This document shows, one piece after another, positions 458 through 44,993 of a stretch of DNA of 64,000 nt. The notes beneath the pieces are model-generated. The model was given only the letters and a program-made list of their open reading frames with translations, did not search any database and had not been told where the DNA came from. The translations under genes and the position numbers were made by a program. The stretch spans positions 132,077 through 196,076 of IMG/VR virus record IMGVR_UViG_3300045988_110853; one strand, 5' to 3'. Positions within the stretch are counted from its first letter, which is position 1; every line of letters starts with the position of its first letter. This DNA comes from a virus.

Positions 458-901
458 ATGAATACTTATGGTTATCCTTAGCAGTATCAACCAATAGGCA
501 ATAGACCTGTTTATGGAACAACTGCTACACCTGTGATTCAAAACAATACTGTATAGCGAATTAGACCAGTAGCATCTTTAGATGAAGTTAGAGCTATGAA
601 TATTGATTTTGATGGTTCAGTTTTTTATTTTCCTGATTATGCCAATCGTAGAATCTATACAAAACAAATAAATATGGATGGAACAGCTTCTATTAATATG
701 TATGAATTAAAAGAAATTCCAAATTCTTCTTAGTCTAATAATGATTATATAACACGAGAAGAATTTAATACTACTTTAACTTCTATTAAAGAAGTATTCG
801 CATAGATTATGGGATCTAATAACGCGGTTGCGCCGTCTTAGGAATCGGGTTAGCCAGCTCAATAGCAATCAACAGAGAGCAAACCGCAATTTAATTTTTA
901 A
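458..901 (+). CDS. Hypothetical small late protein with 7 in-frame TAG codons in 147 codons; ends at TAA.
   Basis: GGAGG RBS at 447-451, ATG at 458. Coherent frame interrupted only by TAG; TAA at 899-901. Not in the ORF track because of the TAGs. Confidence 0.45.
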
Positions 902-913
902 GGAGAGTTTCAA

Positions 914-1162
914 ATGACACAATCGATGAATCCAATGCAAATTATTGCTATGATTAAAAACGGTCAAAATCCATAGCAATTAGTTTTATCTATGCTTGAA
1001 AATCAAATGGGTGGAACGCCAATGGGCAATAATTTATTACAAATGGCACGGAACGGTCAATCCGATGACATTGAAAAATTTGCTCGTAATTTGTTTGAAT
1101 CAAGAGGTTTGAATTTCGATAAAGAATTTAATAGTTTTAAGTCCCAAATGGGGTTTAAATAA
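914..1162 (+). CDS. Hypothetical small protein (82 aa) with one in-frame TAG at 974-976.
   Basis: AGGAGAG RBS followed by ATG at 914; reads ...NGQNP[TAG]QLVLSMLENQ...; TAA stop. Confidence 0.45.
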
Positions 1163-1188
1163 ATAAAATTATAGAAAGAGGTTTTGTT

Positions 1189-2074
1189 ATGTTTAATTAC
1201 AATTATCCAATGAGCACGCCGAGTTATTCATTATCTGACATTGCTGCGGCTTCTGGGAACGGCTATCGTAATAATGATGGCGGAATGTGGGGAGACGGAG
1301 CTTGGTGGATTATTATCCTGTTCTTATTCTGCTTCAATGGTTGGGGCGGTAATGGCTGGGGTAATAATGGTGCTAATGGTTCTGGTTTCCAAGGCACTAC
1401 AACCCGCGAAGAATTAAACTATGGTTTCGATATGAGTGATCTTAAATCTGGAGTCAATGGTTTAAGTTCTAGCCTTTGTAATGGTTTTAGTGGAGTAAAT
1501 ACTAATCTTTTAAGTGGTTTCGCTAATCTTGCTGAAACTAATAATGCTAATACTCGTGCTTTACAGAGCGATATCTGTAATATGGGTATGAATAATATGC
1601 AGAATACCTTTAGTATTACTCAAGCCATTAATGCTGATACTGTTGCTGGTATGTAGAATACTAATAATTTAACTCAGCAATTAAATAATATGGCAGCTAC
1701 TAATGCTCAATGTTGCTGCGAGAATAAACAGTTAATTCAGTCTAGCTTTGCTGATCTTAATTACAATCTCGCTAGTATTGCTTGCCAGAATCGTTAGACT
1801 ACCGTTGATGGTGTCCGCGATATTATTGACAACAATAATGCTAATATGCGTTCTATTCTTGACTTCCTTGTTCAAGATAAAATTGAGACTCTTACCAGTG
1901 AAAATAGCACTCTTAAAAATTAGATTTCTCAAAATCTTCAAAATGCTTATCTTATTGATCAGTTGTCTCCAAAAGCAACTCCTGCTTATATTGTTGCTAA
2001 TCCTTATACTGGTGTTAGTTATACTAGCTATGGATGCGGATATGGTTCAGGATGCGGTTGCAATTCCTGATTGA
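1189..2074 (+). CDS. Gly/Asn-rich protein with one transmembrane segment (about 295 aa). Three in-frame TAGs; TGA stop. Possibly structural.
   Basis: Track ORF 1189..1656 continues in frame through TAGs at 1654, 1795 and 1921 to TGA at 2072. Contains hydrophobic WWIIILFLFCF and GWGGNGWGNNGANG repeats. Confidence 0.5.
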
Positions 2075-2091
2075 AGAAAGAAGGTTAAATT

Positions 2092-2514
2092 ATGGAAATA
2101 ACGGCTAATGCTTTACAATCAGTTGCTACTGGTTCTAATGTAGTATTCACTAACACAGCTGTTGCTGGAAACTGTTCCATACTGTATCGCGAGGGTAGTG
2201 GTTTAGTTACCCTCCGCGGTCTTACGAACGGTCAGCGCAGAGCTCGTTTCCGCATTTCATTTGGAGGTAATATAGGACTTCCAACTACTGGAACTGCGGG
2301 GGCTATTTCTTTGGCTATAGCCATTAATGGAGAGCCAGTTACTACTTCTACAATGATTTCTACTCCTACGGCTACTGGACAGTTTAATAATGTTTCACGT
2401 GCTTTATTCCTCGATGTGTTAGGCGGTTGTTGCACTCAAATTAGTATTGAAAACACGAGTTCATAGGCTATTGATGTTGAAAATGCCAGCTTAATTATCG
2501 AGAGAGTGGCATAA
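2092..2514 (+). CDS. Hypothetical protein (140 aa) with one in-frame TAG at 2464.
   Basis: Track ORF 2092..2466 extended through TAG to TAA at 2512; GGT-rich RBS upstream. Confidence 0.45.
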
Positions 2515-2527
2515 GGAGGTTTTTTAA

Positions 2528-3073
2528 ATGTGTGATAAATTCCAAGAAATTAAAAAGCAATTATTAACTCAAGTAGAAAGCCAAATGGCTCATTTAGAAT
2601 GTGTTGATACAAAGGAAATGGGCGAAGTAATAGATATGATAAAAGACCTTGAACAGGCTATTTATTATTGCACTATTACTGAAGCTATGAATGAATTACC
2701 TGAAACCACACATTATTATACTGAAAAATATAAATCTCCTCATAAAAAAAGAATTTATAAACCCATGACATATGATTATGATTGGGAAGATTATGATTAT
2801 GATGAACATGAATATGAGATGCCAACGAGTGGGAAATCTCATGAAACCCATGATAGCAGAGAGGGCCGTAGCGGCGTCCACAGAAAGATGTATATAGAAG
2901 CCAAAGAACTTCATAAAGATAAAAGCGTTTAGATAAAAGAGTTAGACAAGTATCTTCAAGAATTAAGCTCTGATATAGTAGAAATGATTGAAGATGCTTC
3001 TAATGATGAACGTTCTTATATGGAGAAGAAAATCTAGGCTTTAGCATCTAAAATTGGATCTATGAATGGTTAA
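2528..3073 (+). CDS. Hypothetical acidic protein (181 aa) with two in-frame TAGs.
   Basis: Track ORF 2528..2932 continues through TAGs at 2930 and 3035 to TAA at 3071; RBS GGAGG at 2515. Confidence 0.45.
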
Positions 3074-3365
3074 TATTAATGATAGGAATTGGAGGATACT
3101 ATTAGTATCTTCCAATCATCCTATGTTAATGCGACCTTCTGGAATATATACTTTAGGTTCTTGTGATGATCCTACTTCAACAATTTATATTAATGAAAAT
3201 ATTAGCAATAAAAAATTAAAAAAAGTATTAGCGCATGAATTAACTCATGCTGCTATTTTTAGCTATGATATTTCATTAAAACCAGAAGAAGAAGAATTGA
3301 TTGCGGGTTTGGTAGGAACTTATGGTGAAGAAATTATAAATAATACTAATCTTTTATTTAAATAG
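3066..3365 (+). CDS. Putative Zn metallopeptidase-like protein with an HExxH motif (LAHELTHAAIF).
   Basis: Single HExxH motif in a 99 aa ORF; overlaps the end of the previous gene. Confidence 0.4.
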   Translation: MVNINDRNWRILLVSSNHPMLMRPSGIYTLGSCDDPTSTIYINENISNKKLKKVLAHELTHAAIFSYDISLKPEEEELIAGLVGTYGEEIINNTNLLFK

Positions 3366-3376
3366 ATAAAAAAAAT

Positions 3377-3418
3377 AAGGGAATGAAACTATTTTGTTTC
3401 ATTCCCTTATTTTTTTTA
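3377..3418 (+). terminator. Rho-independent terminator closing the plus-strand late gene block.
   Basis: Perfect 13-bp stem aagggaatgaaac / gtttcattccctt followed by a T8 run. Confidence 0.7.
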
Positions 3419-3847
3419 TTAGTCTTTAAGTGGTAATTTTAAAGTCCTTTCATAGTACTCTTTAGCCTATCCATTTCCACCTAAACCTGCATACACTTTA
3501 AAGAATTCGACTAACTATTCATACTGTCCTGAAGTCATATATCCTTGTTTTAAGAAACTTTGACATAATTGAATTAATCTAAATCTATAAGAAGCAAGAA
3601 TTATTTCAATATATCTCTCACTACTCTTCTTTTCTTCTAATACGAAAGATCTTAAATTATTTAGATCTTCTTTAATTGGAGCTATGTGTTCTTCAATTAA
3701 TTCTTCTAATTGTTCATCTTTCTTTTCTTCTGCCAATTTTTGATACATTTTCATTTGAGTATAAATATATCTACAAAAGGCTAAGAGGCCAGCAGAAATA
3801 AGACCAAAAAATATTTCTATAAAATGCTAGGCAATAAAAGTAGACAT
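3419..3847 (-). CDS. Hypothetical protein with an N-terminal TM segment (142 aa); 3 in-frame TAGs.
   Basis: RBS GGAAGGAGG plus ATG at 3845-3847. Track ORF 3515..3754 is its middle; the frame continues through TAG at 3515 to TAA at 3419. Confidence 0.45.
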
Positions 3848-6070: not shown

Positions 6071-6565
6071 TCACAAATTTTCTTTTTTGTCAAGTTTTAA
6101 ATTAATAATGTTCTAATTGCGGGAACCGCGCAAAGGTAAAGTAATATCCCTTTCCTTTTGGATATATGGTCCATCAATTAGATAATCAGCGGTTTTTAGT
6201 ATATTCTTAATTCTAATATTATTACTATTCTTTAAATCATCGTAAACATATCCAGTCCATATATATATTTTAATGTTTGGATATATTTTTTTAATTTCAG
6301 TAATAACTAAATTAGTTAAAAATTCGTTTTCAGGGCAGAGAGGTTCTCCACCCATAATACAAAGATTGCGCTCAACATTATTTGCATTAATAGCAGTAAT
6401 TAATTCATCTAATACTTTATTAGTAAATTCTTTACCGCCATTAAAATCCCACGTTTCAGGATTCTGACATCCTTCACAATGGTGCGGACACCCTTGTGTA
6501 AAAAATGATACACATACTCCGGGTGCCGCTGCCAAATCATTCTTTATAATTCCTGCATATTTCAT
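6071..6565 (-). CDS. nrdG: Anaerobic ribonucleotide reductase activating protein (radical SAM); a C-terminal extension is read through a TAG at 6113.
   Basis: Motif GCPHHCEGCQNPETW (CxxxCxxC); sits directly upstream of, and overlaps, nrdD. The track-ORF stop at 6113 is TAG; the frame continues 14 codons to TGA. Confidence 0.75.
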
Positions 6566-8832
6566 TCTAATGCTCCTGTATGTTTTACTCTTGCTTCGAC
6601 TTCTTTTTGTTTACCCCAGTTAAAAGCAGTTTTATAATTGCCTGTAAGATAGCCAGTTACACGACGTAATTGCTGAATATTATGACTTCCGCACTCAGGA
6701 CAAGAATCATTAAATTCATCACAATAACCGCAATCAAGACAAGTATCATTAGGAACATTTACCGCAAAATAAGGAATATCTTTATCCATTGCGTAATTGA
6801 CAATAGTTTCAAGAGCATCAATATTATTTTTAACTGTAGAATCAAGCTCAACATAAGTGATACATCCAGCAGAAGAATATCCAGTCAATTCAGATTCAAT
6901 ATCAATTTTATCAAAAGGACTCATTTCTTTCCATACAGGAACGTGAATACTATTGGTAAAGAACTCTTTATCACTGACATTAGGAATTTCACCATATCTA
7001 TCTTTAAACTTTGTCATAGCAGTATAACAAAGATTTTCAGCAGGAGTATAATATACACCAAAATTAAGTTTATATTTTTCTTTATATTCAGCGCATCTTT
7101 CTTTGAAAAGCGTTTCAATCTTTTTAGCAATTTTCATACCATATTCTGTGGTATGGTCTTCACCAACAAGAATTTGAAGAGCCTCGGCTAAACCAATTTG
7201 TCCGATAGCAAGAGTTCCGTGTTTAAGAGCAGAACGAATTCCTTCTTCTGGAACATAACCTGCCATAACATTATTCTCATACATAAATCTCGCAGATCCA
7301 GGATCTTGAGAACAAATCCATTCAAAACGTTCCATTAATTGAATACGTGCTTCATTAATTTTTCTATCAAGTAAAGACATAAATCGTTCTACACCAATTT
7401 TAGTTCGTTCTTCTTGGGACAATAACTTATAGTCATCCCAATTATCATTTTCATTTAAAGTAACGGCCATCATAGCAAGAGTAGGAAGAATAATAGTAAC
7501 AGGACAAATATTTCCACGTCCATCTTTGAGCTGACCGAATCCATTAATATCCCAACCATTCGCAGTTCTACACCCCATTGTAGAGAAATAAGTGCGAGGA
7601 TCATTAATATCATATCCTGCGTTGCCAGACCAATCAACATTTGCGTAATTAGGATAAAGGCGTCTTGCGGTGCTTTCTAATGCTAATCTATATAAATCAT
7701 AGTTAGGGTCGCCCGGTTTGCGGTTAACACCTTTCATACATTGAAAAATCCCGCAAGGGAAAATTGAAGTTTTATGTAGTTTACCGAGACCTTCAATAGA
7801 AACATCTAATAATGCTTTAGTTACCATTCTACCTTCTGGTTTAGTGCAAGTGCCATAATTGATACTTGTAAATGGTAATTGATTACCGCTACGAGATTGT
7901 AGGGTGTTAAGATTATGATAAAGACCTTCTGCAGCCTAATGAGTTTCACGGATAGTCATTTTCATAGCATATTTATATGCTTCTGGAAATGATTCATAAA
8001 AATCATCATCAATGGGAGTTTCTTTACTATAACAGCCATCATATTTACTCATATCTAATCCTTCATATAAAAACTCAATGCCATCATTGAAATGTTTAAA
8101 GAAAGATTTTCTTACATAAGGAACCATAGTCCAATCTAAATGAGTAGCACTAACTCCGCCAAATTGACAAAGGCTTTGAATTTGGAAAATAACAGCGATT
8201 AATTGAAATGCTGTATTAATTGAACCGGCTGGACGAACATCTGCTTGACGAGTATTAAATCCATTAGCAAGTAAATCATCAAAAGGAATACTTAAACAAT
8301 TATGAGAACCAACATAATAAGAATCAAGATCATGAGTATAAATAATATTATCAATATGATTCTTACGAGCCATTGGTGAAAGTAAATAATCAAGCGCAAG
8401 TTGTTTAGTAACGACACTACTTGCTTCACCAGTGCGGCCGCCGAATGAATGTTCGTCAACATTAGCATTTTGATTTTTTACATTATTACCATCAAGCTTT
8501 TCACGAATTGCTTTAATAAAATCATCTCTTTTATTACGAGCGACTTCTTTTTTATATCTATATCTGATATAAGCACGAGCAACATCACGTCGTTCAGAGC
8601 GCATTAAATAATCTTCAATCCAATCTTGAAGATCTTCTACTCCAACGCTTCCATCAGGAAAATGATTTATTTGTCTTTCAATATCTTCCGCGATATCTTT
8701 TGCGGTATCATCTTCATATAATTTGCCATCAACTTCAATAAATGCTTTGTTGATAGCATTAATAATTTTCTTTTTATTAAATTGAGTTATACTTCCATCA
8801 CGTTTAATAATATACAAATTTTTTGCCTCCAA
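6562..8832 (-). CDS. nrdD: Anaerobic ribonucleoside-triphosphate reductase NrdD, one gene with an in-frame TAG at 7936-7938.
   Basis: Track ORFs 7936..8832 (N-terminal ATP-cone, LYIIKRDGSITQFNKKKIINAI) and 6562..7827 (C-terminal glycyl-radical RVTGY motif plus a zinc ribbon CLDCGYC...CPECG) are in the same frame. Only TAG and 36 sense codons separate them. Confidence 0.85.
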
Positions 8833-36727: not shown

Positions 36728-37123
36728 TTAAATTCCATAATCAGTGTTTATAGGTTCACTGTTATCACTATAATCATCTTCAGAATAATAATTCATAGAA
36801 GTAGTTTCAACATCACTTACATTTGGAATATTACCAAGTTCTTTTTTATAATTATTATAAGCTTCATCAAGTTCTTTCATAACTGAAGCATACTTAACGC
36901 CATCTTTAGTATTTTCAGCCATTGATTTTTTATAATAATAAACTTGGCTTACGCCATATGCCGCCCAAGGAAGACTTGCGCTTGCGGTAAGCCAGGGTAA
37001 AGAACCCATATATCCATTAAAAATACAATAAAATGCTAAAACAATATATGCTAATGTTGAAATCCAAATTAAGGCAGATTCTTGAATTAATAGAGTTTTA
37101 GAAAATTCTCTTTTTTGTTTCAT
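36728..37123 (-). CDS. Holin-like membrane protein (two TM segments), immediately downstream of the endolysin.
   Basis: TM segments LIWISTLAYIVLAFYCIF and LPWLTASASLPWAAYGV; position next to the lysin. Confidence 0.4.
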   Translation of the reverse strand: MKQKREFSKTLLIQESALIWISTLAYIVLAFYCIFNGYMGSLPWLTASASLPWAAYGVSQVYYYKKSMAENTKDGVKYASVMKELDEAYNNYKKELGNIPNVSDVETTSMNYYSEDDYSDNSEPINTDYGI

Positions 37124-37124
37124 A

Positions 37125-38426
37125 TTACACCAATCCTTTATCTTTCATAATTCTATAAAGAACTACAATCATTTCTTCACGAGTCATAAATTTTTTATAC
37201 ATTTTACGATTTAAATTATCGCCTTTAATATATCCTTTGCTTTCAGCCCAAGTTCTTTCCGTATCAGACCAAGAACTTGCATTTTTTTCAGCTTGTTGAT
37301 TTAAATAAACTTCCATCATTTCATTAAATTTATCCTGAGTCATATCTTCATCCTCCTCATTAATATTTATATTATCACCAATTTTTTGTTTAAATAATTG
37401 CCATTGGTAATCGCCACTTGTTTTATAATAACTATTCATATCACTTCCGCACATTGGGCGAGGACATAGTTTTCCAGTCACGTCATAGTGGCGAATAACG
37501 CGATCCGCAGGTATATTATATTTCTACATTAATTGCTTTACTAATTGTACTGTATTTTCTATTGCTTTTGGATCAAAATACCAATCAGTATCACTAGCTA
37601 CAATATTAGATTTATTTATTTTACAAGGTCTCACTTCGATTCCAATAGAATTGGCATTTCTACATTCAGGATGCTTATATCCTTTTTTAGTGCCACAATG
37701 CCAAGCTATATCTTCATCTTTAACACTACGGTAAATAATATCTTTTTCATCAACACAATAATGAGCCGAAGATTTGGCTGCTGGATTTTTAAAATAATTA
37801 CTAATATTTTTTGCTGTCCCCAAAGATCCAAAATAATGTATAACAATATACTTTATTTTTCTATTATTACTTTTTTGATAATTAGTTGTTGTTAAATTAT
37901 CTACAATTTTCATATCTTCACCTTTTCCTATAAATTGATCGTATATTTCAACTCCATAATATAATCTCTACTACTGGACTTTTAAACTCTAATCTTTTGG
38001 TCGTTCAAACTAAGTTAAAACTATATTTGAAGCAGTCTATATATCTTTACAATTTATTAAAGTATTCCAAATGGTAGGATAATATGTAGAAAGTTGATAA
38101 ACTAAAAATTCAAGTTGAGTATTTAAATCTCCTATTGAAGTATTTTTCTTTTTTGTAAAATCATATAATTGTTTTTTAAGGCTCCAATAGGTCCATTGCG
38201 CTAAGCCATATCCAGCTTTGTCATAAATAAAATTAGTATATTTACCATTGTCTACTTGTTTTGTATACTATTCATCATTTAATCCAAGAGTCTTTTCAAA
38301 ACTATTTTGAAGATTTTTTGGGTTAAAATTTGATTCAGCTTTCAAGTTTCCCATTAATCCCGCGGTTCCGTAGGGATTTTTTATTTGCTTATATAAATAA
38401 TTCCAAATTATTTCAATATTAGTCAT
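37125..38426 (-). CDS. Multidomain endolysin, about 433 aa: an N-terminal lysozyme-like (tail-lysozyme-type) domain plus an amidase_2 (N-acetylmuramoyl-L-alanine amidase) domain plus a C-terminal domain. About 7 in-frame TAGs.
   Basis: GGAGG RBS and ATG 38424-38426. GLMGNLKAESNFNP...GYGLAQWTYW (lysozyme-like) continues in frame through TAGs into track ORF 37524..37913 (IVIHYFGS...AHYCVD, amidase_2), and through TAG 37524 into 37125..37481 (RVIRHYDVTGKLCPRPM). Confidence 0.6.
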
Positions 38427-40481: not shown

Positions 40482-40551
40482 AGTAGTAGAACTCCTTTCT
40501 ATCTATTTCTATAAATATATTAACATAAAAAATATTAAAAAGCAAAAAAAT

Positions 40552-40580
40552 AAAGGCGAAAGTATTATACTTTCGCCTTT
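40552..40580 (-). terminator. Hairpin terminator ending the rSAM operon.
   Basis: aaaggcgaaagta / tactttcgccttt. Confidence 0.55.
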
Positions 40581-40583
40581 ATT

Positions 40584-41876
40584 TTAATTTAATAATTCAT
40601 CTATCCATTCTTGCTTCATATTATTTGGAAATTCTTGATTTATATTATGTTTTTTATAATATTTATTCCAAAATTCAATATTAGCAAGAGCACGAGCTTT
40701 ATGCATAGGACAAATATAAGTAACTCTTTTGTTAAGAACGCCAGTTTCTTGATAATTATATGCTTGACACCAAGCACAGCCAGTAGCGATAGGACATTCA
40801 CGACATTCATCAGAAGATTGGTTGTAAGAATTAATTGCTTTCAATTCTTTTGTTAGTTGTTTTTGTTCTTCTGTTGTTGCTATTTCATTTTTATTTACAT
40901 TTCCTACAATAAGAGGAGGAACAGAATCTCCTAAAGCATCTTCCATATAGCGTAAACAAGGATATAAATTGCCTGTATAATTCATAGCAATCATAGCGCC
41001 ATTTCCGCCACACCAATTCTATAATTCATCTTTATTAGTCCAATCTTTTGGTCTAAATAATTTTGAATCTGGATATTCAAAAAATGAAATATATATATCT
41101 TCTTCTAAATTATTATCAAGAAGATATTGTCCTAATTCTTGTAATTGTTTATAATAGATTTTAGCGTGTTCTAAAGTCCAACCTTTTTCAAAAATTACAT
41201 TGCCTAATATAGAAGTAAATCCTATGTCTAAAAGAGCTTTTACCGCGTCATTTAAATACATAACATTATTAGGAGATAAGGTAATTTTTGAGCAAGGGTA
41301 TTCTCCAGTTTTTTCTTGCCAGTCTTTTATCGCTTTTACTACAATATCATAACTACCAGAGCCATCAGGAAATTTTCTACAAGCATCGTGTAATTCTTTA
41401 TTTCCATCAATACTAATAGAAACAGACAACCATTGTTTATATTTATCCAAAAATTTTTGTACTTTTGGATCAAAATATAACGTTCCATTAGTACAAATTA
41501 AAAATCTTGTAAAATAAATTAACGGACTGTTCATTTCAATTAATTTAGAAATAGTATAATCCATTATTTTATCTATTAAATCTATGTTTAAAAAGGGTTC
41601 TCCGCCAATAAAATCAAAAACTAATCCTATGATATTATCTGGGTCAAAATAATCATTTTTCTAAGGATTTACTATTAGCATATCAATATATTTTTTAGCT
41701 GTTTCAAAATCCATTAAATGATTTTTTTTACAAGTTTGATAACAATAACTGCATCTTAAATTACATGAATCAGTAACTTGTAAAGTTATATCAAAAATTT
41801 TGTCATTTTCTTTTTTCCATAATTCTGGATATAGTCTTTGAATTGTATCACTATACTATTCAAATTTACGTCTCAT
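40584..41876 (-). CDS. Radical SAM enzyme with a C-terminal SPASM domain (anSME/peptide-maturase-like), about 430 aa, with 3 in-frame TAGs.
   Basis: ATG 41874-41876 (ATGA overlap with the upstream gene). CNLRCSYCYQ (CxxxCxxC) lies upstream of track ORF 41019..41564. Same-frame track ORF 40584..40994 carries CRECPIATGCAWCQAYNY (SPASM). Confidence 0.7.
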
Positions 41877-42181
41877 TGAGCATCATCATTAATTGTTACT
41901 GTAATAGTTTTTGTAGAAAAATCAATACTCCAATAAGCATTATTGCCATATTTTTCTAAATCGTAATATTTTCCAACTTTATTTCTTATTTTATCATATT
42001 CAATAAATTTTTCAACATATTCTTGATGATATTTTTTATAATTTTCACTTTCTATATTATTAAAAGCAGTACTATTCATCATATATGTAATAATACTTTG
42101 ACGAGCGAGAAGATCTTGATAAGCTCGTTCTAATTTATCATTTAAATCTGTATTATTGGCATTTACTGTAATTGTTTTCAT
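41873..42181 (-). CDS. Hypothetical protein (102 aa) between the Cys-rich gene and the rSAM gene.
   Basis: Track ORF. Confidence 0.35.
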   Translation of the reverse strand: MKTITVNANNTDLNDKLERAYQDLLARQSIITYMMNSTAFNNIESENYKKYHQEYVEKFIEYDKIRNKVGKYYDLEKYGNNAYWSIDFSTKTITVTINDDAQ

Positions 42182-42207
42182 ATTTTTCTCCTTTTTATCT
42201 TTATAAA

Positions 42208-42912
42208 TTAACTCTTTAAAATTTTAGAATATAAAGTTTTTAAAGCAGTGATTGCTTTTTGCATTTCAGACTTTTTACAAGTATCTCCACTATAAGAAGT
42301 GGATTGCATTTTAGAAATATTTGTAAATATTTCATTTTTTAAAGTTGTATTAACTTTACTATTGGAAGAAACGTTTGTAGATAGAGTACTATAACCACGT
42401 CTAGATAATTCTTTGTTTAACATAGTATAAATATTAGCAACATCAGCCGCATATAAAACAATTCTTAAACTAATAGAATTATAAAGATTTACATTTGCCG
42501 AAGTAGAACAACCATTATCACAAGCTCCAGAACAATTGCCGGTGCAAGCAGAACAATCATTTCTACAACTAGCACTACATCCAGAGCATTGACCGGAACA
42601 GCTACCAGTACAGTCAGTACGACAGGCAGCACTACATCCAGAACAACCTCCAGAACAATCGCCAGTACAGTCAGTGCTACAGGAGCCACCACATCCAGAG
42701 CATTTTCCTTCACAATCGCCCGAACAGCTATTACTACAGGCTCCGCCACAGCCAGAGCAACTTCCATCACAGTCTCCTCTGCAACTTCCTTGACAAACAC
42801 TTGTTCCACAAGTTTCACATAGAGAACAATTTCCACCACATCCATGGTCGCATCCATTACTACAACTTACAAAACAAGATCCAACACATCCAGTTGTAGA
42901 ACAATTAGCCAT
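42208..42912 (-). CDS. Cysteine-rich repeat protein: about 45 Cys in C-S-G-x-C-type repeats over the N-terminal 135 aa, with a C-terminal 100-aa Cys-poor domain.
   Basis: Strong RBS AAGGAGG; repetitive GC-richer DNA at 42490-42900 encoding CSGC/CTGS repeats. Confidence 0.55.
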   Translation of the reverse strand: MANCSTTGCVGSCFVSCSNGCDHGCGGNCSLCETCGTSVCQGSCRGDCDGSCSGCGGACSNSCSGDCEGKCSGCGGSCSTDCTGDCSGGCSGCSAACRTDCTGSCSGQCSGCSASCRNDCSACTGNCSGACDNGCSTSANVNLYNSISLRIVLYAADVANIYTMLNKELSRRGYSTLSTNVSSNSKVNTTLKNEIFTNISKMQSTSYSGDTCKKSEMQKAITALKTLYSKILKS

Positions 42913-42926
42913 ACATTATGTCCTCC

Positions 42927-43388
42927 TTATGTTAAATTTTTTATAATATTTTCCAATTCATCTAATTTATTAAATAATTGATATTTAATAAATATACTGC
43001 TTAATAAAGAATAATATCTTAAAGAATTATTTTCTTTTATTTTGTAATTTTTAAAAAACTCTATATTATTTTCTTTTGTATCTGAATCTAATTTTACTTC
43101 TAAGAATAGATAATCAATAGCTGTTGAAACTTGAATATTATTTTTTAAATAATCAATTTTGTTAATAAAATCCTGTAATTTATTAATCTATTCTAAATTT
43201 CTAAGAATTTCAAAATTTTGAATATTATAAAAAATTATAGCAATAGTTTCTTGATTCTCCAGATCAGAAATTTCATTTAACTATGAAATTAATTCATTAT
43301 CGTTAAATAAAGTACCATCTTCTAATTCTTTAGAAACTTTAATTTTTAAAAGTAAAACATCTTTTTCGGATAGAGACATTTTATTCAT
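42927..43388 (-). CDS. Hypothetical protein (153 aa) with 2 in-frame TAGs.
   Basis: ATG 43386-43388; TAA 42927 sits immediately before the RBS of the Cys-rich gene. Confidence 0.3.
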
Positions 43389-43570
43389 CCTTTCTTTAAT
43401 ATAAATTATAGCAAAATTTTTTCAATTTCGCAAATTTTATTTACCTAATTTATTTATAAATGTTGGGTTTATTTTTAATGGAAAATGGCCTTTTAAGGAT
43501 TTTGCTGAAAAAATTTCTATGGGTGTGAATGATTGGAACTACGGCCGATCGCGTTAATTAGGGTAAAAAA

Positions 43571-43607: not shown

Positions 43608-44993
43608 TTACTTATTCAGCGCCTTTGAAAGCATTTCCTTAATGTCAATGCCATTTTCAGACATAGCTTCAATGACCTGATTTGCGGAACCCATAACATC
43701 CTTTACAAGACGAGCAGAGTTTCCGTCGCCATACTGGACGATCTTATCCACATTGGTAAGGGGCGCAGCCGCATTTGCCACAATTTGAGGCATTGCATTG
43801 AAATACATTTCAATGATAGAAGCTTCACCCATCTTCTTCTGTGCTTCTGCTTTCTTGTCAATTGCTGCGGCTTCAGCTTCACCAACGGCAGCAATACCAG
43901 CAGCTTTCTGCTCGGCCGCAAACTTCTCAGCTTCCGCGCGAGCACGCATAGCCTTAGCTTCCTGCTCGATTTCATAAGCCTTAGCTTCTGCGTCTTTCTG
44001 ACGACGGATCAAATCTGCTTCAGCAGCCTTTTCCGCAGCATACTTATCAGCATCAGCCTGCTTACGAACCAACGCAGTCAGTTCATATTCCTTAAGCTCA
44101 ATTTCCTTCTGCTTCAGTTCAGCTTCGCGCTCAGCCTTTGCGATATTCGCATTGGTTGCCGCAACATCCTTGAGCTTACGCTGGTTTTCAGACTCAATAC
44201 CTGCGGCTGCCTCAGCCTGAGCTTTCTTAGTGTCAGCTTCCTGCTTCAACTGAGCCTGCTTAATAGCGAGATCGTTATTGCGGATTGCGATTTCCTCAGC
44301 AGCCTTAACCTTAGCGTCATTAGACTGCTTAGCATTTTCCGCACGAGCAACTTCAATCTCACGTTCCGCATTGGACTTAGCGATCGCTGCGTTCTTACTA
44401 ATCTGAGCGACATTATCAATACCAAGGTTAGTGATAACATCATTATCATCAGAGAAGTTCTGAACGTTAAAGGTAATCAACTCAAGGCCATAACGAGCCA
44501 AATCAGGAACTGCGTTCTCCTGGACCTTTTCGCTAAACAGCTTACGATCGCTAACCATATCAGTCAACTTCATCTGACCGACAATCTCACGAATATTACC
44601 TTCAAGAAGGTCATTAATCTTACGAGAAATTTCATCACGACCTACATTAAGGAAGTTCTGAGCGGCGAGCGCAATCATTTCAGGATCTCTGCCAACACGA
44701 ACGGAAACTGTAGAGTCAACACGAACGTTAATATATTCGGCGGTAGGAACCGCAGATCCGGTCTTTACATCAATCTGAATTGCGCCAAGAGCCAGCTTAT
44801 CCAGACGTTCGAAGAAAGGAATCTTCAAGCCAGCTTTACCAACAAGAATTCGAGGTTTCTTATGGACACCACTGATGATATAAGCCATATCAGGCGGAGC
44901 CTTTACATAACCATTGAGGAAAATGAAAATTACCAGTAGCGCAATAAGAACTACAGGAATTGCCGGAAGGATAAATGAAATAATAGCGGGCAT
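43608..44993 (-). CDS. SPFH/band-7 (flotillin/YqiK-like) membrane protein with a long Ala/Glu/Lys-rich coiled coil; GC-rich.
   Basis: N-terminal TM segment; SPFH core (...GLKIPFFERL...IDVKTGSAVPTAEYINV...); flotillin-like EA-rich repeats. Confidence 0.75.
   Translation of the reverse strand: MPAIISFILPAIPVVLIALLVIFIFLNGYVKAPPDMAYIISGVHKKPRILVGKAGLKIPFFERLDKLALGAIQIDVKTGSAVPTAEYINVRVDSTVSVRVGRDPEMIALAAQNFLNVGRDEISRKINDLLEGNIREIVGQMKLTDMVSDRKLFSEKVQENAVPDLARYGLELITFNVQNFSDDNDVITNLGIDNVAQISKNAAIAKSNAEREIEVARAENAKQSNDAKVKAAEEIAIRNNDLAIKQAQLKQEADTKKAQAEAAAGIESENQRKLKDVAATNANIAKAEREAELKQKEIELKEYELTALVRKQADADKYAAEKAAEADLIRRQKDAEAKAYEIEQEAKAMRARAEAEKFAAEQKAAGIAAVGEAEAAAIDKKAEAQKKMGEASIIEMYFNAMPQIVANAAAPLTNVDKIVQYGDGNSARLVKDVMGSANQVIEAMSENGIDIKEMLSKALNK

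Follow-up and report, generated by a model that had tools for sequence, protein, structure and literature searches.

The CXXX-repeat systems of the curated families TIGR04115 ('radical SAM peptide maturase, CXXX-repeat target family'), TIGR04116 and TIGR04114 are three-gene cassettes, most commonly in the order Cys-rich target, small protein and radical S-adenosylmethionine (SAM) enzyme. Characterized radical SAM/SPASM enzymes that act on Cys include PapB, of the PapB/PapA (freyrasin) pair, which installs six Cys-to-Asp thioethers in CX3D motifs (PMC9413430); CteB, a SCIFF maturase that has two auxiliary clusters and forms thioethers; and QhpD, a precedent for thioether crosslinks placed in a functional subunit (QhpC, the gamma-subunit of quinohemoprotein amine dehydrogenase) rather than in an exported peptide. 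Here we describe a cassette of this kind in a stretch of 64,000 nucleotides (positions 132,077 to 196,076 of IMG/VR virus record IMGVR_UViG_3300045988_110853; hereafter the window), consisting of a 234-aa Cys-rich protein, a 102-aa protein (p102) and a 430-aa radical SAM/SPASM enzyme. That these three genes are members of the one curated, already named CXXX-repeat system, with the Cys-rich protein as the expected target of the enzyme, is practically certain. The original prediction for this stretch had linked the enzyme to the Cys-rich protein correctly, but it treated the pair as lacking a name and overlooked the middle gene, which is the third component.

The radical SAM enzyme scored 404 bits against TIGR04115, above the cut-off of 350, with residues 30–402 aligned to positions 4–359 of the 359 in the model. 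The next models were PapB (NF047865, 188.9 bits against a cut-off of 340), the SCIFF maturase (TIGR03974, 133.5 against 425), CcpM (126) and QhpD (107, far below its cut-off of 453), so that the enzyme belongs neither to the PapB-type ranthipeptide systems nor to the SCIFF system. Models for the anaerobic sulfatase maturase (anSME), HxsB, cyclophane formers and others followed at 50–110 bits. The original prediction of a peptide-maturation-type SPASM enzyme therefore held, with the thioether formers PapB and the SCIFF maturase as its next matches. The identity that would have spoken against it, an anSME (TIGR03942, 75.6 bits against a cut-off of 349.45) or a nucleotide-modifying enzyme, was rejected on scores, and no sulfatase was seen among neighbour genes in the part of the window that was scanned.

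The CX3CX2C motif (C38-x3-C42-x2-C45), a FIGGEP motif, C166 and the SPASM cysteines (C289-x12-G302-x4-C307, C358-x2-C361-x5-C367-x2-C370 and C389) were all invariant in an alignment of 15 sequences. The SPASM pattern is near-canonical, with a last spacing of x2 instead of x3 relative to the reference CX9-15GX4C...CX2CX5CX3C...C. Among Pfam models, Radical_SAM matched at 39.8 bits and SPASM gave no reported match at E ≤ 0.01. By sequence profile, the solved structure nearest to the enzyme was CteB (5WGG, 109 bits), in an alignment that starts at CteB residue 84. The domain of CteB before this residue is its RiPP (peptide made on the ribosome and modified after translation) recognition element (RRE). 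Because the alignment starts only there, and because the CX3CX2C motif of the window enzyme lies already at residue 38, the window enzyme has no counterpart of this domain and lacks an N-terminal RRE.

The partner p102 aligned over the full length of TIGR04116 ('CXXX repeat peptide modification system protein') at 17.9 bits (E 0.0025), under the cut-off of 50. Its assignment as the TIGR04116-type associated protein of about 100 aa comes instead from a profile built on 46 small proteins that occupy the equivalent position in bacterial cassettes, which it matched at 64.7 bits, with pairwise E-values down to 5e-14. Its predicted order of elements is a strand, two long helices, a short helix and two strands. 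The AlphaFold2 model from the single sequence had a predicted local distance difference test (pLDDT) score of 58.0; Foldseek of this model against the PDB gave nothing below E 0.59, and the p102 family, searched as a profile against the PDB, gave a best E-value (0.068) that was not meaningful.

The target protein contains 36 Cys rather than the roughly 45 first counted; 35 are in residues 4–135 and one (C212) is in the C-terminal domain, which had been described as Cys-free. The Cys-to-Cys spacing is four residues in 25 of 34 cases, three in seven and five in two, so the array is not the uniform CSGxC repeat that had been proposed, and the residues between are mostly G, S, T, D or N. Repetitive DNA does underlie the array, although it is modest (57-nt period encoding 19 aa with five Cys, 2.9 copies, 77% matches, positions 42605–42771), and the orthologue in one related contig (L003) has one additional 19-aa unit. 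Eight related phage contigs of IMG/VR also keep the open reading frame (ORF), and among the resulting nine orthologues the invariant columns comprised 33 of 35 Cys (94%), 42 of 100 inter-Cys positions (42%) and 76 of 99 positions of the tail domain. The strong invariance of Cys relative to the positions between them, together with conservation of the ORF in eight contigs, indicates that the repeat ORF is more than a chance reading frame.

The tail domain matched a profile of the C-terminal domains of bacterial 'repeats-first' targets at 39.9 bits (E 2e-14). Those domains in turn matched the profile of the N-terminal domain, of about 105 aa, of the commoner 'domain-first' targets (E 1e-12 to 1e-3), which indicates that the same domain can stand either before or after the repeats. 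It is presumed to be a recognition or docking domain. The window architecture, with repeats first and domain last, was recovered in 176 clusters at 50% identity from a search of 1.84 billion representatives, and when the tail domain by itself was used in a word-indexed search, only near-identical fragments were returned. Neither the window target nor its tail domain matched NCBIfam or Pfam, and TIGR04114, an 18-position repeat model, gave no reported match; this model is weak, in that a homologue named 'modification target Cys-rich repeat protein' by JGI scores 19.1 against its cut-off of 20. An AlphaFold2 prediction of the Cys-rich protein from a 15-sequence alignment (pLDDT 38.6) formed only the tail domain, as four helices at pLDDT 50–60.

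The window cassette resembles the named system in its three-gene composition and order, in the radical SAM score, in the homology of the partner and the non-repeat domain, and in a typical Cys spacing and count. It differs in being carried by a TAG-recoded jumbo phage away from recognizable tail genes, in the minority architecture of its target, in a partner under the TIGR04116 cut-off and in a target that misses TIGR04114. PapB is its best-scoring characterized relative and shares the combination of a radical SAM/SPASM enzyme with tandem short Cys repeats; PapA, however, is a short peptide of leader and core in which Asp/Glu acceptors are obligatory, whereas the window substrate has 234 aa, about 35 repeat Cys and no conserved acidic acceptor, and is probably recognized through a domain of about 100 aa and a separate partner. 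CteB likewise acts on a Cys-rich substrate, although SCIFF peptides have about 45 aa and six Cys. QhpC, a periplasmic enzyme subunit with three links to Asp/Glu, has neither a repeat array nor a phage context.

The gene for the radical SAM enzyme contains three in-frame TAG codons (41856–41858, 41661–41663 and 41019–41021). If these were genuine stops, the enzyme would be a pseudogene and the cassette a decaying passenger; under the standard code the gene is indeed split into pieces of 136 and 181 aa, and no TAG-suppressor tRNA was found within the window. This explanation is effectively refuted by the surrounding evidence. Of the 85 genes called in the window, none uses TAG as its stop (all have TAA or TGA), whereas 33 carry in-frame TAG. 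Homologues in the 15-sequence alignment mostly have Gln at two of the three positions (9/14 and 8/14), the catalytic Cys are all intact, and the full 430-aa frame is kept at 88–99% identity in the eight related contigs, some of which have CAA or CAG at the window TAG sites. Together these observations indicate that TAG is a sense codon in this phage, most likely for Gln, and bear out the earlier view of the gene as TAG-recoded and native. The target gene itself has two internal TAG codons in five of the eight contigs (L003–L005, L007 and L008) and one in a sixth (L006).

TAG recoding has been proposed to mark late genes in recoded phages. The window genes for DNA polymerase, ribonucleotide reductase and topoisomerases have zero or one TAG, whereas those for the radical SAM enzyme, p153 (the ORF preceding the target gene) and the endolysin carry TAG sense codons, a distribution that fits late expression of the cassette if the proposal holds. 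The phage has a GC content of about 30%. The related contigs are 47–197 kb long, five of them above 110 kb, and a full-length relative of 194 kb is IMGVR_UViG_3300045988_118866. The window DNA polymerase is 41–44% identical to those of gut phage Phass-1, Enterococcus phages of 134–142 kb and SPbeta-like Bacillus phages, and the carrier is a TAG-recoded jumbo phage, probably of a Bacillota host. Phass-1, the closest cultured relative by DNA polymerase, was considered as a cassette carrier and rejected, as it gave a weak partial radical SAM match only.

To place the cassette within its family, one bacterial genome per species was scanned, yielding 80 loci, mostly from Oscillospiraceae, Lachnospiraceae and other gut Bacillota. 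A co-oriented CXXX ORF adjoined the radical SAM gene in 74 of these loci (60 upstream, 14 downstream only), and in at least two of the six remaining cases (L026 and L056) the end of the contig truncates the locus. A relative was encoded on at least 529 IMG/VR contigs, with an adjacent Cys-rich ORF in 68 of the 73 viral loci examined. The enzyme family comprises at least 7,403 clusters at 90% identity with E ≤ 1e-20. A tblastn search of GenBank phages with the N-type target domain, and a megablast search of the same phages with 8 kb around the cassette, found nothing.

The 88 target proteins of the bacterial loci had a median of 36.5 Cys (10–145) and a median length of 236 aa (up to 650 aa). 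Their Cys spacing was four in 72% and three in 27%, with mostly Gly, Ser and Thr between, and Asp at position +3 fell from 24% of the window repeats to 3% family-wide. The window protein thus stands at the family median in size, and the targets are proteins rather than short peptides. The order of repeats first and domain last was a minority architecture (9 of 88). A fixed structural super-repeat was also considered, given the 4-4-4-4-3 spacing of the window, and was rejected since the mix of three- and four-residue spacing in the family is irregular.

Many cassettes encode two tandem targets, the first with an N-terminal domain and about 18 Cys, and the second, with its own ribosome-binding site and start, a near-pure repeat (265 aa, 64 Cys) without a recognition domain. 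An example is found in a Blautia wexlerae metagenome-assembled genome (L022, 8325–8855 and 8865–9662), and the same 'C18 C64' pattern is seen in many IMG/VR loci (L105–L134). CXXX genes are often truncated or placed in a wrong frame by gene callers (L012 9346–10017; P0124, P0127, P0129 and others; Caproicibacterium), which report V/A/L-rich alternative frames, the non-repeat domain only, or a wrong frame fused to the gene of the partner. The numbers of targets in databases are therefore too low, and the proteins are missing from the annotated gene sets normally used for proteomics databases.

The synteny of the relatives with tail-fibre and baseplate genes is strong. Among the 25 commonest PHROG families of the two genes immediately upstream of the cassettes in the 80 loci, six were without annotation and all 19 annotated families were tail-fibre, tail-collar-fibre, minor-tail, baseplate or tail families. 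The next two upstream genes were led by Baseplate_J (15), Phage_Mu_Gp48 (6), Sheath_initiator (5), Tail_P2_I (3) and Phage_tail_fib (3), and the two downstream genes by amidases (8), holins and XhlA. Most cassettes were co-oriented with the upstream tail genes. A Caproicibacterium chromosome (CP135996) carries the identical radical SAM gene twice, each copy within a myovirus-type prophage (at about 850–872 kb and 1,313–1,335 kb) with the order tape measure, sheath initiator, Baseplate_J, a baseplate/tail gene that is not the same in both prophages (one has Mu_Gp48), short tail-fibre-like proteins, CXXX target, partner, radical SAM, a 105-aa ORF and a GH25 endolysin. Three other large phage contigs (206, 108 and 254 kb) also had tail-fibre or tail-protein neighbours. 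The CXXX cassette family is thus overwhelmingly phage- or prophage-encoded, directly after tail-fibre/baseplate genes and before lysis genes; a full-text literature search found no description of this phage and tail-fibre context of the CXXX-repeat system.

A comparable module is present in enterobacterial jumbo phages of the SPN3US type, whose radical SAM enzymes and Cys-rich ORFs make up phrog_1802 and phrog_6085. The window enzyme matched phrog_1802 at 220.9 bits, and the window target matched phrog_6085 weakly, via the repeats. In SPN3US the gene order is gp169, gp168, gp167 (a virion structural protein), three CXXX ORFs (130, 134 and 68 aa; positions 2070–2462, 2473–2877 and 2893–3099 of locus L176, corresponding to the complement of about 143,828–144,220, 143,413–143,817 and 143,191–143,397 in NC_027402.1), gp165 and the radical SAM genes gp164 and gp163, with a tail assembly chaperone and an endolysin a few genes beyond. 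Erwinia phage Kwan has the same arrangement, with CXXX ORFs at 3157–3546 and 3555–3983 of L177 (NC_031010.1). As in the window, CXXX-repeat ORFs (130 and 134 aa, 20–21 Cys) lie near, and just upstream of, radical SAM genes; here the module sits directly after virion/tail proteins and near the endolysin. Virion proteomics of SPN3US assigned gp168–170 to the tail, likely as tail-fibre or baseplate proteins (PMC10052503), and the supplement of that paper held nothing on the CXXX or radical SAM genes.

The SPN3US-like module differs from the window cassette in a radical SAM identity of about 26%, in the presence of two radical SAM genes, in the absence of a TIGR04116-type partner, in targets with another N-terminal part of about 50 aa, and in hosts that are facultative Gram-negative bacteria. 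Homology of this N-terminal part to the Clostridial domain was rejected, as it gave no significant match to the domain profile. Given the low identity and the lack of N-terminal similarity, the module is regarded as analogous and distantly related rather than as part of the same family. In the SPN3US and Kwan records other frames are annotated over the CXXX ORFs (SPN3US gp166, which spans the second ORF, and Kwan gp184 and gp183), so the true CXXX ORFs are absent from the annotated gene sets on which proteomics is usually based.

These observations suggest a mechanism in which the 234-aa protein would be made late in infection and its helical non-repeat domain would serve as a built-in recognition ('follower') element bound by p102, which we infer would substitute for the RRE domain lacking in the enzyme. 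The enzyme would then work along the repeats, using hydrogen abstraction by a 5'-deoxyadenosyl radical together with auxiliary Fe-S clusters to join Cys sulfur to the carbon of a neighbouring residue. With up to about 35 small thioether rings, the Gly/Ser/Cys-rich chain would become a covalently stapled rod resistant to reduction and proteases. The product would be neither exported nor cleaved, and would act as a structural or tail-associated virion component suited to the anoxic gut, where disulfides are unreliable. Taken as a whole, this reading of a late phage protein, probably tail-associated and stapled by many thioether links that the radical SAM enzyme installs, seems to us as likely to be right as wrong. 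Its parts differ in strength: it is highly probable that the enzyme acts on the repeat Cys, and, by analogy with PapB, CteB and QhpD, intramolecular thioether links are marginally favoured as the outcome of the reaction.

One rival explanation concerns the role of the Cys and the chemistry. The protein could be a tail-associated or other phage protein whose Cys bind metals or Fe-S clusters or form disulfides, or the enzyme could carry out Cys-to-formylglycine oxidation, epimerization, methylation or intermolecular crosslinking instead of forming intramolecular thioether rings. Such alternatives are consistent with the conservation of only Cys and spacing, the residues between varying freely and offering no conserved acceptor, and with the chemical diversity of SPASM enzymes, illustrated by the spread of models at 50–110 bits. 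We nevertheless consider them fairly unlikely, since Cys-thioether formers provide both the highest-scoring characterized relatives and the closest solved structure, since anSME scored only 76 bits against 349, and since a dedicated enzyme and partner kept in 74 of 80 loci argue that the Cys are substrates and not just ligands.

Several points weigh against the stapled, tail-associated protein proposed above. With Asp at +3 in only 3% of repeats family-wide, there is no conserved Asp/Glu acceptor, so PapB-type chemistry is not simply transferable; this argues for a different acceptor carbon, possibly C-alpha. Cys sulfur is bonded to C-alpha in sactipeptides and to C-beta or C-gamma in ranthipeptides. 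No similarity of p102 to known RRE/PqqD proteins was detected by PDB profile search or Foldseek. The non-repeat domains and the p102-type small partners had no PHROG family match, and the target protein matched no tail family in Pfam or PHROGs. At the pLDDT values given above for the target and p102, the structure predictions are too poor for checking a fibre-like fold. In the GenBank phage collection the best identity to the window enzyme was not above 37% and came from a metagenomic record, and a full-text literature search found no experimental study of any CXXX-repeat system member. The immediate neighbours of the cassette in the window phage (p153, an SPFH protein and a PhoH/PIN protein) are not recognizable tail genes. 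The option of a crosslinked structural protein, raised in the original prediction, has gained from the tail-gene context in relatives and in SPN3US and lost from the neighbours in the window itself.

The slot between tail-fibre and lysis genes is a classic insertion site for morons (accessory cargo genes), so the synteny is no proof of a structural role. The main rival explanation is accordingly that the cassette is a moron set making a large RiPP-like product, such as a bacteriocin, signal or toxin, that is released by lysis or benefits the lysogen and acts outside the virion. All characterized relatives of the enzyme (PapB, the SCIFF maturase, CcpM and others) mature RiPP peptides, and in the window the cassette comes with promoter-like sites and a terminator of its own and lies away from recognizable tail genes. 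The similarity of the window DNA polymerase to those of SPbeta-like Bacillus phages is also in keeping with it, SPbeta encoding the bacteriocin sublancin. Against this, no ABC exporter, leader peptidase or immunity gene was among the 25 commonest neighbour families of about 80 loci, and the targets of the bacterial loci are large and lack any cleavage motif, double-glycine or other, at their junction. The majority of cassettes run in the same direction as the upstream tail genes, and the TAG sense codons of the window genes, as in the endolysin, are consistent with late lytic expression. On balance a released RiPP-like product of the moron type seems improbable.

Based on synteny, target size and the absence of export genes among the commonest neighbour families, a virion or tail-associated component is a plausible identity for the product in preference to a released RiPP-like factor, held with slightly less than even confidence. 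Extending this to the whole 'CXXX-repeat RiPP' class, with its thousands of cassettes in phages of gut Bacillota, and to the analogous SPN3US-like module, as encoding a virion appendage in the form of a poly-thioether rod on the tail fibre or baseplate, made from a protein with tens to over a hundred Cys, is a more tentative suggestion.

The features of the locus, and other features of the window, are listed in the table below.

Table. Features of the CXXX cassette and of other regions of the window (window positions)
Feature	Position	Strand	Description
Candidate operon promoter	43398–43433	-	Two overlapping sigma-70-like matches: TTGCGA-17-TATAAT with TG; TTGAAA-16-TATATT
p153	42927–43388	-	153-aa ORF, two in-frame TAG; ends 14 nt before the Cys-rich gene
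CXXX-repeat target gene	42208–42912	-	234 aa, 36 Cys; AAGGAGG ribosome-binding site upstream
Target repeat region	42508–42903	-	Residues 4–135, 35 Cys
Target C-terminal non-repeat domain	42211–42507	-	Residues 136–234, predicted helical, motif E-x-x-R-R
p102, small partner protein (TIGR04116 type)	41873–42181	-	102 aa; AAGGAGA ribosome-binding site
Radical SAM/SPASM maturase	40584–41876	-	430 aa with three in-frame TAG read as sense
Intrinsic terminator hairpin	40547–40585	-	18-pair stem, 3-nt loop, then T-run
SPFH/Band-7 (flotillin-like) membrane protein	43608–44993	-	461 aa; long Ala/Lys/Glu-rich coiled coil
Endolysin (Phage_lysozyme2 + Amidase_2)	37125–38426	-	Seven in-frame TAG
Membrane protein, possibly holin	36728–37123	-	131 aa
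tRNA-Cys(GCA), tRNA-Lys(UUU), tRNA-Gly(UCC)	62712–63364	-	
Possible anaerobic ribonucleotide reductase and radical SAM activase	6071–8604	-	Two adjacent ORFs, 680 and 164 aa
Vault-like protein	56519–59014	-	831 aa; major-vault-protein domains (MVP_shoulder 77 bits, Vault_3), long coiled-coil tail
DUF2828/DUF7788 protein	59132–60658	-	
Small-ORF cluster	458–3386	+	Most ORFs with TAG codons

The cassette forms a co-oriented string on the minus strand, in the 5' to 3' order p153, target, p102 and radical SAM, which confirms the reported placement of the enzyme two genes downstream of the Cys-rich gene. The gaps upstream of the target and p102 genes (14 and 26 nt) each contain an AAGGAG-type ribosome-binding site, and the ATG of the radical SAM gene overlaps the p102 stop codon as ATGA. 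The terminator that had been noted at 40552–40580 was recovered as a slightly longer hairpin, whose first bases overlap the radical SAM stop codon and which closes the unit. At the other end, the promoter-like sites lie inside the 219-nt gap 5' of p153; they are consensus matches only, of a kind found 40 times against 29.8 expected, and as such weak evidence. The p153 gene is probably on the same transcript as the Cys-rich gene. It had no match in NCBIfam, Pfam or PHROGs, and is kept in all eight related jumbo-phage contigs (L001–L008, of which L002 includes its last 31 residues only). As a general fourth component of the cassette it was rejected, since it is confined to this phage lineage and absent from all other cassette loci.

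The SPFH/Band-7 protein lies directly 5' of the cassette operon. The endolysin gene is found 2.2 kb downstream of the cassette and is followed by the small membrane protein, an arrangement that echoes the order of cassette then lysis genes in the prophages.

The three tRNAs encoded in the window include those for two of the three leading residues of the CXXX protein, in which Cys ranks first, Ser second and Gly third. The CXXX gene accounts for 10% of all Cys codons in the window, and GGA, which is read by the UCC anticodon, makes up 17 of its 30 Gly codons; the phage tRNAs may support translation of this protein. The two adjacent ORFs resembling an anaerobic ribonucleotide reductase and its radical SAM activase were recognized by sequence motifs only; if real, the pair would fit a strictly anaerobic host permitting oxygen-sensitive radical SAM chemistry. 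The vault-like protein and the adjoining DUF2828/DUF7788 protein form a pair that is unusual in a phage, and a DUF2828/DUF7788 protein was also seen downstream of one bacterial CXXX cassette. The small-ORF cluster, which had no family match, includes an Asn/Gly-rich protein of 293 aa that has a hydrophobic segment and the C-terminal sequence ...YGCGYGSGCGCNS, and a 140-aa protein with a CC pair; these may be further Cys-containing late proteins. Outside the window, another phage-borne radical SAM repeat-peptide system was observed in a Leptospira phage LE1-like genome (L178, KF114877.1, 4969–8278), annotated as a His-Xaa-Ser cassette (HxsA/HxsD/HxsB/HxsC), and cassettes of radical SAM enzymes with repeat targets may be a more general phage cargo.

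The product of this large 'peptide maturase' family has apparently never been asked about, and the survey recasts the family as a phage module with whole-protein substrates. Phage carriage, the position at the junction of tail-fibre and lysis genes and the whole-protein substrates together shift attention from natural-product biosynthesis to virion construction or phage–host interaction. An enzyme that processes dozens of sites per chain would be of interest to peptide and protein engineers. SPN3US and Erwinia phage Kwan are cultured carriers of the analogous module, so the idea is testable now. If the proposed reading is correct, the target would be the first structural protein of a virus to be thioether-stapled by an enzyme, with RiPP-type chemistry building a particle rather than a natural product, and would bring a new type of post-translational modification into the structural biology of phages. 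A thioether-stapled fibre, if that is the product, would explain covalent stabilization without disulfides in phages of strict anaerobes.

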